This document shows positions 3,170 through 64,000 of a stretch of DNA of 64,000 nucleotides, one piece after another. Source of the stretch: a bacterium. GTDB taxonomy: Bacteria > RBG-13-66-14 > B26-G2 > WVWN01. Position numbers and translations under genes: made by a program. Position 1 is the first letter of the stretch. Each line of letters begins with the position of its first letter. Location: NCBI GenBank assembly GCA_035529855.1, contig DATKVX010000039.1:4244-68243 (forward strand), written 5' to 3'. Below the pieces are notes generated by a model. The model saw nothing but the letters and a program-made list of their open reading frames with translations, did not search any database and had not been told where the DNA came from.

Positions 3170-4750
3170 TTATCTTTTCGGAACCAACCGCCAGAAATTA
3201 CTCGGTTCGTAGCGCGGGCCCTCGTACGCGGCGACGAACTCGCGTTCGTACGACGCCAAGAGCTTCTCGGCCTCGGCGCCGGTTACGCCGTACTCCTCGC
3301 GCGCGCCGGGGGCGAGCAAGTCCGTGGAAGACGTCGCCGGCCGGGCGTCGCTGACGTAAACGGCGCGGCCCGCGGCTAATTTATCGTCTATCCGCCTCTT
3401 GAAGTCGTCCGGGTCCCGGACGCCGAAATATATGCCGGCGGTCTCGACGCCCGCGAAGTAGTCGGAATATATCCCCGGCCCGAGGCCGTCCAAACCCGAG
3501 AAGATTACCAGGTCGTCCGGGGCCGTCACGTCATCCACGAACCTCGCGAACGATAAATGCTCGTTGTACTCGGCCTTGGACTCGGGGTATATCGAACCCC
3601 AGAAGTTCCCCGCGAACAGCAGGACCGGCAGCGCGTACAGCACTACCCGGCCTAAGCGCTTCGTCGCCGCGGCGCCGGCACTCGCGTATAAAAAGAATAT
3701 AACGGCGAAGGCTTGCGGCGTCCACCGGTCCGTGCCGCCGGCGTCGCGAAACGTGAAGAAGACGGCGTACGGCAAAAAGAACGCCAACGCCAGCCACGCC
3801 TGCCGGCGCGACGCCCCTCGAGCGGAGAAGCGCGACACGGCCCCCACGAACGCCGCGAGCAACGCCGCCGCGCCCAAAATAATCAAGGCCGCCACCGCGT
3901 ACGACTGCCAGGCCCAATCGCCGGCCAGCACGTCTTTTATCCAACGCAGGCCGAAGACGTTTCGCGCCAACGCGTAAAGGTCGAGCGCGACGTTCACCAG
4001 GCGATAGGTCATGTAGTAATGCGTCCGGCCCGGCGTGCCGAAAGCCCAGCGCCAAAGTTCGCCCGGGCCGCGGTAACCCAAAACGCCGAAGCCTACGACG
4101 ACGTATGCGACGACCCCCGGCGATAAATACGTCAAAACCAAAGCCGGCAAACGCCGCAAATATTTGTCCGGCCTCGAGATGAAGTAGGCCGCGATTAAGA
4201 ACAGAAAGAGCAGGCCGTTAGTTATATGGGTTAAAACGGCGGCGCCGGCGACCGCCGCGCACAACGCCCAGCGGCGGAAATCGCGCGCTTCCGACGCCCA
4301 TTGCGCCGAAAGGAAGGTCGCCATCGCGGCGACGGTACTGACGATTACGCACTCCGCGTTGCACGAGTACGCCCAATACCCGTACGAAAACGCGAGCGCG
4401 AAACTCCCCGCCAAAGACATAGGCCGCGGCGCGCCGGCCTTCCTCAATACCATATAACATAAAACGAAACCGACGCCCCCCACCAAAGCGTCCAGAATTT
4501 GCATAGCGCCGAGCAGCCGGCCGCCGTAACCGAACAACCGCAAGGCCGCTTGGAACGCCAACGCCAAGGGATTATACGAGAGGTGATGCTGGTGCCATAC
4601 GGCGGGGGCCCCGAATTCCGCAATCGCCAATTCCCACCGCATGCCGTCCGGGAAATAATAGGCGGACCGGAATACAAGGTAAATCGCCGCCACGGCTAAG
4701 GCCGCGGCGGCCGCCGTTACACCCCAAAGATATTGCCGCCGCTCGCGCAA
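3170..4750 (-). CDS. GT-C superfamily polyprenyl-phosphate-sugar-dependent glycosyltransferase (ArnT/PMT-like), paralog 1. Putative TTG start.
   Basis: The N-terminal half has more than 10 predicted TM helices and the C-terminal half is soluble. The architecture matches paralogs at 9318, 15021 and 25539. The gene sits inside the liv operon between livK and livH. Confidence 0.6.
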   Translation of the reverse strand: MRERRQYLWGVTAAAAALAVAAIYLVFRSAYYFPDGMRWELAIAEFGAPAVWHQHHLSYNPLALAFQAALRLFGYGGRLLGAMQILDALVGGVGFVLCYMVLRKAGAPRPMSLAGSFALAFSYGYWAYSCNAECVIVSTVAAMATFLSAQWASEARDFRRWALCAAVAGAAVLTHITNGLLFLFLIAAYFISRPDKYLRRLPALVLTYLSPGVVAYVVVGFGVLGYRGPGELWRWAFGTPGRTHYYMTYRLVNVALDLYALARNVFGLRWIKDVLAGDWAWQSYAVAALIILGAAALLAAFVGAVSRFSARGASRRQAWLALAFFLPYAVFFTFRDAGGTDRWTPQAFAVIFFLYASAGAAATKRLGRVVLYALPVLLFAGNFWGSIYPESKAEYNEHLSFARFVDDVTAPDDLVIFSGLDGLGPGIYSDYFAGVETAGIYFGVRDPDDFKRRIDDKLAAGRAVYVSDARPATSSTDLLAPGAREEYGVTGAEAEKLLASYEREFVAAYEGPRYEPSNFWRLVPKR

Positions 4751-59784: not shown

Positions 59785-59787
59785 AAA

Positions 59788-59820
59788 ATAAGCCGGGCGT
59801 GAGGCCCGGGGTTTTTTTAT
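59788..59820 (+). terminator. Rho-independent terminator after the MFS pair. It also marks the left edge of the AT-rich island.
   Basis: AAAAAATAA-GCCGGGC-GTGAG-GCCCGGG-GTTTTTTTAT. Confidence 0.7.
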
Positions 59821-59853
59821 TAAGGTTTGCGCTTGTAGGAAAAACCGGACGGA

Positions 59854-60798
59854 TTACATCTTTTCTGAAATCAAATAAATAATTGCGTTTAGCCACATAA
59901 TATTCAATTTTCTATTAGTGGTATTAGAGGCGTTATGGTTAAAATAGGAATAGAATAGATTCCAATAATCCTTATCCCATTTTAGTAACCAAGCAGCATC
60001 GTACGTTCCGTGACCTAAATTTTCTTCATCGGTTAAATGATAAAACTTGAAGAGTACTTCGGGTTCGCCTCTAATAAAAGAATTAGGTATATCTTCGTGG
60101 GATTTAATAATCCGCGAGCCGTACGAACCTTCTTCTCCGGGTAATTCTACTCTACCCACCTTTTTACAAATCGGGTGATTGTAATCGAAAGGGTTGACCT
60201 CAACCGTTACGTAAGGTTTATCGAAATGACCTACTTCTCCAAAAAAGTGTAAATCGTGGGTACATACGGCGCTACCGCCCCCGCTTAAATAAGTCTTTAA
60301 TGCGTTTTCTATATCCACCCTTCTATCGTAAATTCCGTAACCAGTGGGGCAATGCTCGTCCGTATAATGTCGATTGTCACCAATTCCAAAGATGCAATCA
60401 TATTCGTTATTTATCTGGCCGACCGCATTTAAGAATTCGACCCGGAAAAACGGGCTAAAAAAATCCCGGAAATGATCTATGTAACTATTATGGCAAATCA
60501 CCAATAGCCTGGGCTTGAATTTCTTATTAACTTTTTTAGGATAGGGTAAAGGCAAGAGCCTTAAGACTTTTTTTTTGTCGTTGTCGGGTGCGGAAATAGT
60601 CGATATAAAGGTTAGAATAACCGCTAAAACCGGTCCTATTATAGTCGCCAACGCTACTATTTTATCTCCCTCAAAATCGAAAACCGCCAAAATTCCTATA
60701 GAAATTACTAAGATAAAAAGGCTTATATAGGTAACGAAAAGAACCCGTCCATACCTTCGATTTAGGTATTTAGTAACCCAATAAAACCCTATTTCCAT
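59854..60798 (-). CDS. Hypothetical 2-TM membrane protein from the AT-rich island; possible PLC-like phosphodiesterase (weak motif-level hint).
   Basis: The N-terminal helices are VLFVTYISLFILVISIGILAV and IVALATIIGPVLAVILTFI. The downstream domain carries LLVICHNSYIDHF, resembling the PI-PLC X-box 'sHNsY'. A second His lies about 50 aa later (NRHYTDEH). RBS GGGAG. AT-rich. Confidence 0.45.
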   Translation of the reverse strand: MEIGFYWVTKYLNRRYGRVLFVTYISLFILVISIGILAVFDFEGDKIVALATIIGPVLAVILTFISTISAPDNDKKKVLRLLPLPYPKKVNKKFKPRLLVICHNSYIDHFRDFFSPFFRVEFLNAVGQINNEYDCIFGIGDNRHYTDEHCPTGYGIYDRRVDIENALKTYLSGGGSAVCTHDLHFFGEVGHFDKPYVTVEVNPFDYNHPICKKVGRVELPGEEGSYGSRIIKSHEDIPNSFIRGEPEVLFKFYHLTDEENLGHGTYDAAWLLKWDKDYWNLFYSYFNHNASNTTNRKLNIMWLNAIIYLISEKM

Positions 60799-60860
60799 CT
60801 CATTCGCTCCCGCGGTCGTAGGTCGCAGCGGTCTATGTGTTGGATTGTTTTTTCAATTTA

Positions 60861-61469
60861 TTAATAATTATCGTCTATGAAATTTCCGAGGGCCGCCAAT
60901 ATCTCCTCAATAGAAAGGTTGTTTGGAGCTTGGCGTGCCGCCCACCTGCGCCCAGGATGGACGGTATCCCATAACGAACGTTGCTGCTTGCGCCTACCGC
61001 CCCCCGGGTCGTGGAGGCCAAAGCCATCCAAGTATAAATTCCATACGGGCCTAGTCGAAGTTATGACGAGCGTTTCACCCAAAGGTATCCATATATCGTC
61101 CGCAATTAAGTACCTACAACGAAAATCGGATAAATCCAAATTTTCTGCTTGGTTTATAGATTCGCCGTGCTCTCGCAAACGGTTATATAATGCGTTACCC
61201 GGCGGTTCGTCTAAACGCAGTATACCCCTCCGCGATCCCGGCGGTATTGCTTTCCCAACGTATATAGGTAGTCCCCATCTATCATCGGCGTTCCTATCAG
61301 CAATGCGCGAATAATAACCCAAAGGGCCTATATAATAAATGGCGTAAATACCCGCGCCTTCGAAAGAACTCCCGGGGGGTAAATTAGTAACGCCCCTTTC
61401 GAAAAGGGCTTCCTTTAAGCTTTTCCCAAGATTAGCTTTATCCAAAGGGTTATAAGGTTTCTCGTTCAT
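60861..61469 (-). CDS. GIY-YIG type II restriction endonuclease, Eco29kI/NgoMIII-family-like.
   Basis: GAGIYAIYYIGP...LPIYVGKAIPPG form GIY...YVG motifs. I also recall (from memory, with no database access) that NLDLSDFRCRY and WDTVHPGRRWA resemble conserved blocks in Eco29kI-family enzymes, which cut CCGCGG. The start overlaps the MTase stop by 4 bp. Confidence 0.55.
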   Translation of the reverse strand: MNEKPYNPLDKANLGKSLKEALFERGVTNLPPGSSFEGAGIYAIYYIGPLGYYSRIADRNADDRWGLPIYVGKAIPPGSRRGILRLDEPPGNALYNRLREHGESINQAENLDLSDFRCRYLIADDIWIPLGETLVITSTRPVWNLYLDGFGLHDPGGGRRKQQRSLWDTVHPGRRWAARQAPNNLSIEEILAALGNFIDDNY

Positions 61470-62848
61470 AAACCCGGTTTTTCCACTACGACCGCGGCGT
61501 CGTAAAGGCTACGTTTTTCGCCGTTACCGTACCTTACCGTTGAGTCCGTAATACTCGAACCGACACGTTTATCTCTAATAATGTACGTACCGACGAACTT
61601 TAACCCGTGTTCGCGAGCGATTTCCCCGAATAATCGGTCTACTTCAATTTCAATACCTTGGATTACGGAATTACCTATAACTATTACTGCACTCCCGCCG
61701 GTTTTCAATACCCTACTTACGATCTCCCAGAAAACGTAGGTATCGTTAAAATACGAAGCCACGTAGTTCGCCCACCCCGAGCCGCCGTAAACGCCGGCTT
61801 CCTTACGGGTTTCCTTTAATTCCGATAGAATCGCCCGTAATTCCTCATACTCGAACGTCAAAGGAACGTCTTCCAGGCCCCGGACTTCTTGCCAGTATTT
61901 ACCGAAATTCCCGGTTTCCAGCCCCTTTTGTTCATCAGGTTTCGAAACGAAAGACAACCAATATAATTGAGGTCTCGTATTTCTTACGTAATGGTAGTTA
62001 TTCAAATAAGGCGGGGACGTTATTAATAAATCTACAGAATTATCCTCGACCGTATGGTGGTCGGAAAGGAAATTAGCATGCCTTATCCTAGCATCCCCTA
62101 AACTTTCTGGCCTTTTTATCAGCCCCTTTACGGATATTATATCATCCAACATCTCTCGACATTTCCCGGACAATACCCGCGCAAAATCAGCGTCCTTCAT
62201 TGCCGGTTTCCCGGCACTCCTGCGCGTCCCCAAACTAGGCTCGTAGGAATAATTCGAAACGCCGACCATCACCGAGCCGAAGGCGATGCGGAATAAGTCC
62301 TTTATAAGACCGTCATCTATTCTATCGATATAATCTAACGCGTGTAGTACTTGTTTTTCTATACGGGGGCTAAAAAACGGTTCTTTAGTTTTCAAAGGGG
62401 GTTTTTCGATATTGGGGGCCGGCGTACTACGCCATTTAGAGGAAAGGTCCTCTAATTCTAATACCCTAGATCTAAGCGCCTCGATATTTACGGAAAGGCA
62501 TCTCGCTTTTGTACTAGCCGCTAATGAAGCGTAAGGGTTAATATCGAAACCTACGGCGTCGTAGCCCCTCACGACCGCTTGAAATATCGTCGTTCCGACG
62601 CCGGCAAACGGGTCTAAAATAACGGGCGTTTCCGTTTCAACGTCCGATTGAAGGTACAAATCGAAAACGCTATCGACGAAGCCTGCCGAAAACCCGGCGA
62701 TCCAAGGGACCCAGCGGTGTATAGGGGACTTTTTATTTTCAAAAAAAGCCGGGTCTTTTAAACCGTTATTCGTTTTCGGACTAACCCTATTCGAGAAAAG
62801 AACTCGCTGATAACTATCGCGGATTTTTTGTTGGTCTAATCGCGGCAT
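61466..62848 (-). CDS. DNA amino-methyltransferase (N4-C or N6-A, PF01555-like) with motif I (DPFAGVGTT) placed before motif IV (TSPPY).
   Basis: DPFAGVGTT at about aa 80 and LLITSPPYLNNYHY at about aa 270, counting from M18. A GAGGAG RBS precedes the ATG at 62846-62848; the ORF-track start is an upstream TTG. AT-rich. Confidence 0.65.
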   Translation of the reverse strand: MPRLDQQKIRDSYQRVLFSNRVSPKTNNGLKDPAFFENKKSPIHRWVPWIAGFSAGFVDSVFDLYLQSDVETETPVILDPFAGVGTTIFQAVVRGYDAVGFDINPYASLAASTKARCLSVNIEALRSRVLELEDLSSKWRSTPAPNIEKPPLKTKEPFFSPRIEKQVLHALDYIDRIDDGLIKDLFRIAFGSVMVGVSNYSYEPSLGTRRSAGKPAMKDADFARVLSGKCREMLDDIISVKGLIKRPESLGDARIRHANFLSDHHTVEDNSVDLLITSPPYLNNYHYVRNTRPQLYWLSFVSKPDEQKGLETGNFGKYWQEVRGLEDVPLTFEYEELRAILSELKETRKEAGVYGGSGWANYVASYFNDTYVFWEIVSRVLKTGGSAVIVIGNSVIQGIEIEVDRLFGEIAREHGLKFVGTYIIRDKRVGSSITDSTVRYGNGEKRSLYDAAVVVEKPGL

Positions 62849-62920
62849 GTTCTTTTTACTCCTCGTTGTGATAATATAATTATGAGCTGGAAACGTCAAC
62901 TTAAAATATTCCTAAAAAAC

Positions 62921-64000
62921 TTACCCCGGGTGCCAGCCGGCCTTGACCGTCTCGTAGAGGCCGCCGGGGAGGCCGGGCAGCAGCTCCGCCCGCTCGAGCG
63001 CGCCGCGGCCGTACCGCCGGTTCAGCTCGTCCAGCGTCGCCGTGAAGCGGTCCCGCCTCACCTCGAAGAGGTTGCCCGGCTTGCAGTGGTACAGCAGCAT
63101 CGAGGCCGAGACCCCCAGCATCCGCACGCCGCGCTCGCTCATGTCGCCGGGCAGGAGCGGCCAAGCCGCGCGAAAGACGTCCATCCCCTCGTCGACGTAG
63201 CGCGGGAGCCGGTGCGAACGGCCCACGGTGTAGAAGTCCGGGTAGCGCGCGACGGCGTAGACGCACCGGCCGCAGTACCCCTCGCCGCGCAGCCGCCGCG
63301 CCACCCGCTCGCACAGCCACAGGAACGTCCGCCGTAGCTCCGCGGCGTCGTAGGTGTCGCGGTTGAGCGTGATGGTGTTGCCGACGGACTTGGCCTCCTC
63401 GTAGTCGTAGTGCGCCGTCAGCGGCCGGCGGTCTATCCCCCGCCCCATGTTCTGCAGCACTTCGCCGACGATGCCGAAGCGCGCCTTCAGGCGCGACAAG
63501 GACAGGCGGCCGAGCTGGCCGCACGTGCTCGCGCCCAGCCGCCGCAGGTGCTCGCCCAGCTTGTCGCCGATGCCGGGCAGATCCGTCGTCGGCAGCTCCT
63601 CCAGGAAGGTCTCGAGCTGGGAGGGCCTGAGGACCGTGAGGCCGTTGGGCTTCTCGAGGCCGGCGGCCACCTTCGCGAGCATCTTGTTGGGCGCGACGCC
63701 CAGCGAGCACGGGAGGCCGAGCTCCTCGCGGACCTCGCGCTGAAAGGCCGCGGCGCAGTCGCGCGGCGTCCCCCACCGGCGGAACGTCGTCGTGACGTCC
63801 AGGGCCAGCTCGTCGATGGAGGCTATTTCGACCACGGGGGTGTAGTTGTGCGCCCGGGCGACGACCTCGCGGATGGCGTGGGTGTACTTGGAGATGTCGG
63901 CGGGGACGACGACGGCGTCGCGGCAGAGCCGCCGCGCCTCCTCGGAGGGCATGCCGGATTTGACGCCGAACGTACGCGTCTCGTAGGAGCAGGCGGCGAC
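62921..64000 (-). CDS. dinB: DNA polymerase IV (Y-family), partial: the N-terminus lies beyond the window end.
   Basis: ...LGLPCSLGVAPNKMLAKVAAGLEKPNGLTVL...DLPGIGDKLGEHLRRLG... shows the DinB palm, thumb and little-finger motifs. Confidence 0.8.
   Translation of the reverse strand, partial: VAACSYETRTFGVKSGMPSEEARRLCRDAVVVPADISKYTHAIREVVARAHNYTPVVEIASIDELALDVTTTFRRWGTPRDCAAAFQREVREELGLPCSLGVAPNKMLAKVAAGLEKPNGLTVLRPSQLETFLEELPTTDLPGIGDKLGEHLRRLGASTCGQLGRLSLSRLKARFGIVGEVLQNMGRGIDRRPLTAHYDYEEAKSVGNTITLNRDTYDAAELRRTFLWLCERVARRLRGEGYCGRCVYAVARYPDFYTVGRSHRLPRYVDEGMDVFRAAWPLLPGDMSERGVRMLGVSASMLLYHCKPGNLFEVRRDRFTATLDELNRRYGRGALERAELLPGLPGGLYETVKAGWHPG

Follow-up and report, generated by a model that had tools for sequence, protein, structure and literature searches.

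Two adjacent genes, M and R, within a 64,000-nucleotide (nt) stretch of contig DATKVX010000039.1 (GenBank assembly GCA_035529855.1, a bacterium of the GTDB lineage WVWN01; hereafter the window) very probably form a functional Type II restriction-modification (R-M) cassette of the DraI type. In this type, an endonuclease of the Eco29kI family is paired with an alpha-class N4-cytosine DNA methyltransferase (MTase). Judged from the sequence, the cassette appears to be a fresh, compactly organised member of the published DraI system, in an uncultured and CCGCGG-dense host, and not a new subclass.

The nuclease R matched the Pfam family RE_Eco29kI (PF09517) with an E value of 2e-60 and 203.8 bits (cut-off 30.8); residues 35–196 covered positions 2–162 of the 164-position profile. 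The phmmer comparison with the Eco29kI structure 3mx4 gave an E value of 5.9e-39. R was 44.6% identical across 157 residues to Eco29kI encoded on pECO29, and 42% identical to R.DraR1, the nuclease of DraI from Deinococcus radiodurans R1. The active site of Eco29kI was assigned to Y49, Y76, R104, H108, E142 and N154 by modelling and mutagenesis (PMC1952068), and all six residues have equivalents in R (Y42, Y70, R97, H101, E132 and N144). In our alignment of 51 family members, which takes in Eco29kI and R.DraR1, the six catalytic columns were invariant, except that a single sequence has a gap in the column equivalent to Y49. Moreover, R carried the family residue at 54 of the 54 positions conserved in ≥ 90% of members. 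An Eco29kI-like GIY-YIG nuclease had been proposed for this locus in the original prediction, which named failure to align with the Eco29kI family as one outcome that would count against it. R aligned with both PF09517 and 3mx4, and the profile score, the identity to Eco29kI and the intact active site bear the proposal out.

All named characterised members of this nuclease family, i.e., Eco29kI, Cfr42I, MraI, NgoMIII and R.DraR1, recognise CCGC/GG (PMC2241918, PMC10855626). Cfr42I, MraI and NgoMIII are likened to R here by their description, as enzymes of the same family and specificity (PMC2241918); Cfr42I is a tetramer and shares only 32% identity with Eco29kI, with the same CCGC/GG specificity (PMC2241918). 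By homology, R would also be expected to cleave CCGC/GG.

The only Pfam family above the cut-off for M was PF01555. The motifs of M are DPFAGVGTT (residues 79–87), SNYSYEPSLG (198–207), TSPPY (277–281) and VIGNS (390–394), so that an N-terminal FxGxG motif is followed by a central target-recognition region and a C-terminal SPPY. Motif I (79–87) and SPPY (278–281) are separated by 190 residues. Both TSPPY and DPFxGxGTT were invariant across 40 M homologs, and SPPY conforms to the S/DPPY/F tetrapeptide of N4-cytosine MTases. The beta-class order, with motif IV before motif I, was not found in M, and the alignment with the beta-class structure 2zie was circularly permuted: residues 268–287 of M (SPPY) aligned with chain residues 37–56, residues 365–396 with 71–102, and residues 75–116 (FxGxG) with 237–279. 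The beta-class PF01555 enzymes (2zie, 8urk and the cytosine-N4 MTases 8s9m/8s9n) share DPFxGxGTT, SPPY and the V–VI block with M, but they put motif IV first, whereas M puts motif I first and has two additional helical inserts of ~ 140 and ~ 90 residues. The AlphaFold model of M (predicted local distance difference test score, pLDDT, 83.7; predicted template modelling score, pTM, 0.86) showed a Rossmann core of canonical order together with these two inserts.

The characterised relative of M is M.DraR1, with 41% identity over 432 aligned residues (93% of the length, E 6e-117). It was also the best, and the one outstanding, match to M in a translated search of 72,556 plasmid records, where it is located on D. 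radiodurans plasmid CP1 and annotated as ‘site-specific DNA-methyltransferase’. As reported by Li et al. (PMC6712171), M.DraR1 (DR_C0020) is an alpha-class N4-cytosine MTase that modifies the second C of CCGCGG, i.e., C(4m)CGCGG, and protects against SacII; the evidence came from single-molecule real-time sequencing, liquid chromatography–mass spectrometry, gene deletion and in-vitro protection. Later work showed R.DraR1, its partner, to be a GIY-YIG nuclease resembling Eco29kI, with cleavage at CCGC/GG prevented by N4-methylcytosine (m4C), and gave the pair the name DraI (PMC10855626). Sites modified with 5-methylcytosine (m5C) are cut by R.DraR1 and not by Eco29kI. The window resembles DraI in combining an Eco29kI-type nuclease with an alpha-class SPPY N4-cytosine MTase of the same motif order. 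Since CCGCGG contains no adenine, an amino-MTase acting at this site must modify the N4 atom of cytosine; by analogy with M.DraR1, the predicted product of M is m4C within CCGCGG.

These results also settle what had seemed puzzling in the original prediction, namely an Eco29kI-like nuclease without a C5-cytosine methylase, because the DraI partnership has already been described. The claim that M is an amino-MTase and not an m5C-type enzyme held, with SPPY present, the C5-MTase motifs (PC, ENV and QRR) absent and no C5-MTase or Vsr similarity found anywhere in the 64-kb window (tblastn with three C5-MTases and a Vsr, best E ~ 1). The suggestion of a permuted or distinct subclass stood only in its first part: M is permuted with respect to the beta class, with motif I ~ 190 residues ahead of motif IV, but this is the published alpha-class order and thus not new.

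One could argue that the protecting enzyme is a C5-cytosine MTase encoded elsewhere, as in the classic Eco29kI type, and that the adjacent amino-MTase is unrelated to R. Eco29kI itself (pECO29, NC_001537) is similar to the window in its nuclease family, six active-site residues and adjacent overlapping genes, but it has a C5-cytosine MTase partner and an R-then-M order, in contrast to the N4 amino-MTase and M-then-R order in the window. The nearest plasmid homologs of R (Halomonas and Paraburkholderia, 47–48% identity) also adjoin C5 ‘DNA cytosine methyltransferase’ genes, and one of these C5-partnered loci has a Vsr gene as well. However, the search with C5-MTases and Vsr, which covered the 64-kb window, was empty, the amino-MTase next to R is a full-length homolog of an enzyme proven to protect CCGCGG, and M overlaps R in an ATGA junction of the kind associated with translational coupling. 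We therefore consider a C5 partner elsewhere extremely improbable.

The cassette of M and R is located on a low-GC island together with a third gene, ORF X, and all three are encoded on the minus strand (Table 1). The stop codon of M and the start codon of R share 4 nt (ATGA), and X begins 62 nt past R. The ATG start of M is backed by the gene calls in two public assemblies and by the closest homolog, P0002, which begins with MPRLDERK; the same evidence disfavours the alternative TTG at position 62899, which is the mechanical extent of the open reading frame (ORF). The promoter-like match, the Shine-Dalgarno-like site and the terminator-like hairpin are all where expression of M and R would want them. 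The promoter is a putative assignment that draws on consensus match and position, and the hairpin looks like a bidirectional terminator that closes both the M-R-X unit and the convergent gene of the major facilitator superfamily (MFS) transporter.

Table 1. Features of the island and its expression signals (window coordinates).
Feature	Position	Strand	Basis or remarks
Low-GC island with M, R and ORF X	59785..62920		3136 nt, flanked by the MFS transporter gene and dinB; GC content steps sharply at either end
Promoter-like TTGACG-17 nt-TATTAT, 5' of M	62871..62899	-	10 of 12 consensus positions; top match of the region
Shine-Dalgarno-like GAGGAG	62859..62864	-	10 nt 5' of the M ATG; direct reading of the sequence
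M, 460-aa alpha-class N4-cytosine DNA methyltransferase, M.DraR1 family (aa, amino acids)	61466..62848	-	Homology, motifs, predicted structure
R, 202-aa Eco29kI-family GIY-YIG Type II restriction endonuclease	60861..61469	-	PF09517, Eco29kI structure 3mx4, active-site residues
ORF X, 314 aa; N-terminus with two predicted transmembrane helices, plus divergent ThuA-like domain	59854..60798	-	Weak ThuA matches at family level
GC-rich hairpin with T-runs on both strands, terminator-like	59793..59809		6 G-C pairs, 5-nt loop, T-rich tails

M belongs to a widespread family. At E ≤ 1e-10, the search with the M protein returned 3,663 clusters, and identity to M was 48–97% in more than 120 of these; among species representatives, which do not include the present genome, the top match was 66% identical. 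Our survey considered the best 80 of at least 586 confirmed M loci in species-representative genomes (from at least 600 candidate stretches). These 80 loci span many phyla, including Nitrospirota, Chloroflexota, Planctomycetota, Verrucomicrobiota, Acidobacteriota, Desulfobacterota and Elusimicrobiota. An Eco29kI-family match was found beside M in 64 of them, ~ 44 of the matches being strong and near full length. The genes were arranged as an M-then-R tandem in 42 loci, convergently in 19 and as R-then-M in three, whereas no R was detected in the remaining 16, which may represent orphan methylases. The gap at 32 measured tandem junctions ranged from -10 to +35 nt and was mostly ≤ 12 nt, with a 4-nt overlap in five.

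The compact M-then-R operon is hence the typical form, rather than the split arrangement of D. radiodurans, in which a Tn3-family transposase and an integrase lie within the ~ 10.5 kb that separate the DraI genes and which looks like a disrupted form. The m4C-type CCGCGG system has been termed a rarity, with three examples in REBASE (PMC10855626). That published rarity reflects the database searched, and among uncultured bacteria the DraI type emerges as a common alternative to the Eco29kI type with its m5C partner. The same pairing has been predicted in Roseiflexus castenholzii and Roseiflexus sp. RS-1, likened here by description; the former was reported as an R-M system and the latter as an R-M fusion (PMC10855626). 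We also observed that cluster P0045 holds both PF09517 and PF01555, similar to the reported Roseiflexus fusion. In L025, L035, L045, L049, L051, L052, L059 and other loci, mostly from Nitrospira, the nuclease is convergent with M and 27–35% identical to R, which suggests a divergent GIY-YIG sub-branch sharing the M family.

As we envisage it, the M-then-R operon would be transcribed from one promoter upstream of M. The ATGA overlap would couple the translation of R to that of M, so that the methylase would be made first and in excess, and R later and in smaller amounts. M would add an N4-methyl group to a CCGCGG cytosine, by analogy with M.DraR1 the second C on both strands. R, probably dimeric like Eco29kI and R.DraR1, would cut unmethylated CCGC/GG in incoming DNA. 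An early excess of the methylase would let the cassette settle in a genome with ~ 2.6 targets per kb. A CCGCGG site is present at 61492, 23 nt 5' of the R start, and we considered it as a conserved autoregulatory element of the M/R junction. Only two of the 32 measured tandem loci had a site within 150 nt, and a regulatory role is unlikely because the site is not conserved in the relatives.

The original prediction described the genome as saturated with CCGCGG, and the window indeed contains 159 sites, those nearest to the examples given being at 291, 1873 and 2295. Outside the island, we counted 157 sites in 60.9 kb, i.e., one per 388 bp or 2.58 per kb, versus 62.9 expected from mononucleotide composition. 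Dinucleotide shuffles of the window gave 119.5 ± 11.2 sites, and none of 100 shuffles reached 159. Special enrichment of CCGCGG was nevertheless rejected: the excess over the shuffles vanished under an order-4 Markov model (145.0 expected outside the island, ratio 1.08), and two all-GC palindromes were commoner there, GCCGGC with 224 and CGGCCG with 170 occurrences. The density is a by-product of host composition, with CCGCGG neither avoided nor enriched; the sites are very many, as had been claimed, but they are driven by composition and not selected.

In the pooled flanks of other carriers, CCGCGG occurred at 0.71 per kb in 33 R-positive loci (observed/Markov 0.84) and at 0.74 per kb in 31 loci without a strong R (observed/Markov 0.80). 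The density in the window host is ~ 3.6 times that of other hosts of the system. Few hosts are equally dense; one of them is the host of the closest relative of the cassette, L002, with 27 sites in 11 kb. The original prediction also held the MTase to be essential and the system strongly addictive. Post-segregational killing is established for Type II R-M systems. With CCGCGG not avoided in this host, thousands of sites would become open to cutting once methylation was lost, and post-segregational killing, with the essential MTase and the addiction to the cassette that this would entail, is a reasonable expectation. In D. radiodurans, deletion of the MTase gene is viable, yet it results in R-dependent cell damage (PMC10855626). 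The target-dense host, the recent-looking acquisition and the near-identical strains that lack the cassette make the window a natural case for studying how an R-M system is established and becomes addictive.

We must also note several observations that weigh against a functional DraI-type cassette. The specificity is predicted from characterised enzymes that share 41–45% identity, a distance over which MTases can change their target. Promoter-like sites across the region are no more numerous than expected by chance. No controller (C) protein or other timing device was found, and there is no small ORF between dinB and M. Moreover, CCGCGG is not avoided in the host (ratio 1.08), whereas it is scarce in D. 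radiodurans, which has only 696 sites per genome (PMC6712171), compared with ~ 2.6 per kb in the window host; the pCP1 stretch of D. radiodurans has two sites versus 10 expected. The absence of avoidance fits a recent arrival, but a weakly expressed or inactive nuclease would also fit.

The first of these points leaves room for the same two-gene R-M system acting at another recognition sequence, such as a related or degenerate site. In addition to the modest identity, conservation between M and M.DraR1 is lowest in the helical stretch that separates motifs I and IV and presumably serves as the target-recognition domain. However, a block within the insert, SNYSYEPSLGxRxxAGKP, is invariant from M through M.DraR1. 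Both partners independently indicate CCGCGG, the named nucleases cut CCGC/GG even at 32% identity, and the M family co-occurs with an Eco29kI-family nuclease in most loci. A different recognition sequence is thus distinctly unlikely.

The last point could be taken to mean that R is silent or inactive, leaving effectively an orphan MTase with a passenger, which would explain why the cassette is tolerated in a CCGCGG-rich genome; the 16 of 80 related loci with M and no detectable R are in line with this possibility. On the other hand, R is full-length, with the six catalytic residues and all 54 conserved family positions, its junction with M is as tight and coupled as is usual in the family, and its protein sequence is identical on three assemblies. 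The lack of avoidance is itself expected, because a GC deficit of 20 percentage points marks the cassette as a recent arrival. We consider a silent R very unlikely. In practical terms, a SacII-type isoschizomer and a sequence-specific m4C methylase might be obtained from the M-R pair.

The GC content of the island is 43.8%, compared with 63.6% in the rest of the window. Across the M family, the GC content of the cassette lies below that of its flanks by a median of 4.9 percentage points, so the 20-point gap observed here is extreme. Identical R, M and X proteins in the same gene order were present on two further assemblies (ENA ERZ27256810 and JGI 3300031673), and because these are independent, they argue against an assembly artefact. 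A strain without the island (contig Ga0307378_10000823) co-occurs with the carrier.

A metagenome scan with the flanking MFS transporter revealed close relatives that keep the MFS and dinB genes as neighbours and lack M, R and X. In L091:846-1535 (MFS 99% and DinB 96% identical), the slot is occupied by a single 229-aa ORF with no family match. In L087:9300-11051 (92% and 94%), it holds a 583-aa GmrSD type IV restriction enzyme (GmrSD_N E 1.4e-36, GmrSD_C E 8.5e-22), and in L094:9400-11230 (69% and 77%), three secreted-protein genes. The MFS-dinB slot varies between strains in its cargo, which repeatedly consists of defence genes, the R-M cassette being one such cargo, and the cassette was acquired by horizontal transfer into this slot. 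We found no tRNA, integrase or transposase gene at the island borders or inside. The only feature of the island ends is an imperfect 18-nt inverted repeat, CCCGGGGTTTTTTTATTA at 59805-59822 and TAAAAAACTTACCCCGGG at 62913-62930, with 78% complementarity. Of its two arms, one shares positions with the terminator hairpin and the other with the dinB stop codon; the repeat may be due to chance or be a remnant of the insertion mechanism.

The third gene of the island raises the question of whether M, R and X form a three-component system, with the membrane-anchored X acting in defence as a sensor, effector or exclusion factor. X follows R on the same strand after 62 nt, shares its low-GC island and precedes the sole terminator. 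Its relatives are very few. A word-indexed search of 5.8 billion proteins with X returned X alone, and an exhaustive HMMER scan of 1.84 billion representatives gave seven X-family matches, six of them relatives (X-related loci L146/L147, L153, L149 and L156). Just one homolog is full-length (43% identity); its neighbours are a TonB-like gene on one side and, on the other, an unrelated Type II pair of a D12 MTase and a SacI-type nuclease. A distant homolog adjoins a trypsin-like protease and a reverse transcriptase. This hints, in a tiny sample, at a tie between X and defence islands.

However, X was found in none of the 80 other M-family loci, and because it is missing there, the CCGCGG R-M system does not need it. 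The contexts of X amount to just two or three independent cases, and two other homologs, close to genes of the leucine pathway, are surrounded by small uncharacterised ORFs, none of them recognisable as a defence gene. None of the PADLOC models matched X, and its domain is ThuA-like; to our knowledge, the ThuA family has no known role in defence. A three-component system is therefore unlikely, and X was co-transferred on the island without being a conserved component of the R-M system.

Regarding the nature of X itself, the C-terminal domain had no significant Pfam or PADLOC match, and searching Protein Data Bank sequences with the X-family profile gave nothing significant. The single-sequence AlphaFold model of X reached a pLDDT of 39.6. 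Weak ThuA matches were obtained for five of six aligned X-family members, X itself being the exception, with a best E value of 3.1e-5. The conserved blocks of the family are THDxHF, NHPI, EEGS, AAWLLK and NxFY..H, which we take to resemble ThuA motifs. It is conceivable, though rather unlikely, that X represents a very rare, membrane-anchored, divergent ThuA-like family that travels, and perhaps works, with mobile defence cassettes; in that case, X would count as a defence gene yet to be characterised, either accessory or stand-alone, and not as a passenger.

A few observations concern other parts of the contig. Ten large ORFs of the window yielded no phylogenetic marker. The first 2000 nt of the window (positions 1-2000) have a GC content of 54.6%, below that of the rest of the window, and the large ORFs at 836-2821 and 3170-4750 near the window start had no Pfam match. 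On the other side of dinB, past the right end of the window on the same contig (L082:5164-7147), we found a second Type II MTase of 379 aa (PADLOC MTase_II, E 2e-143); the adjoining 277-aa ORF of unassigned family may be its nuclease. A PemK-type toxin gene and lexA are located beside this pair (also L082:3255-4398), so that the neighbourhood of dinB looks like a small defence and SOS island. Lastly, the most depleted palindromic hexamer outside the M-R-X island was AGGCCT, with 11 occurrences versus 33.5 expected under the order-4 Markov model (ratio 0.33). Another restriction system of the host could account for this depletion, and the second MTase pair past the window edge is a possible candidate.

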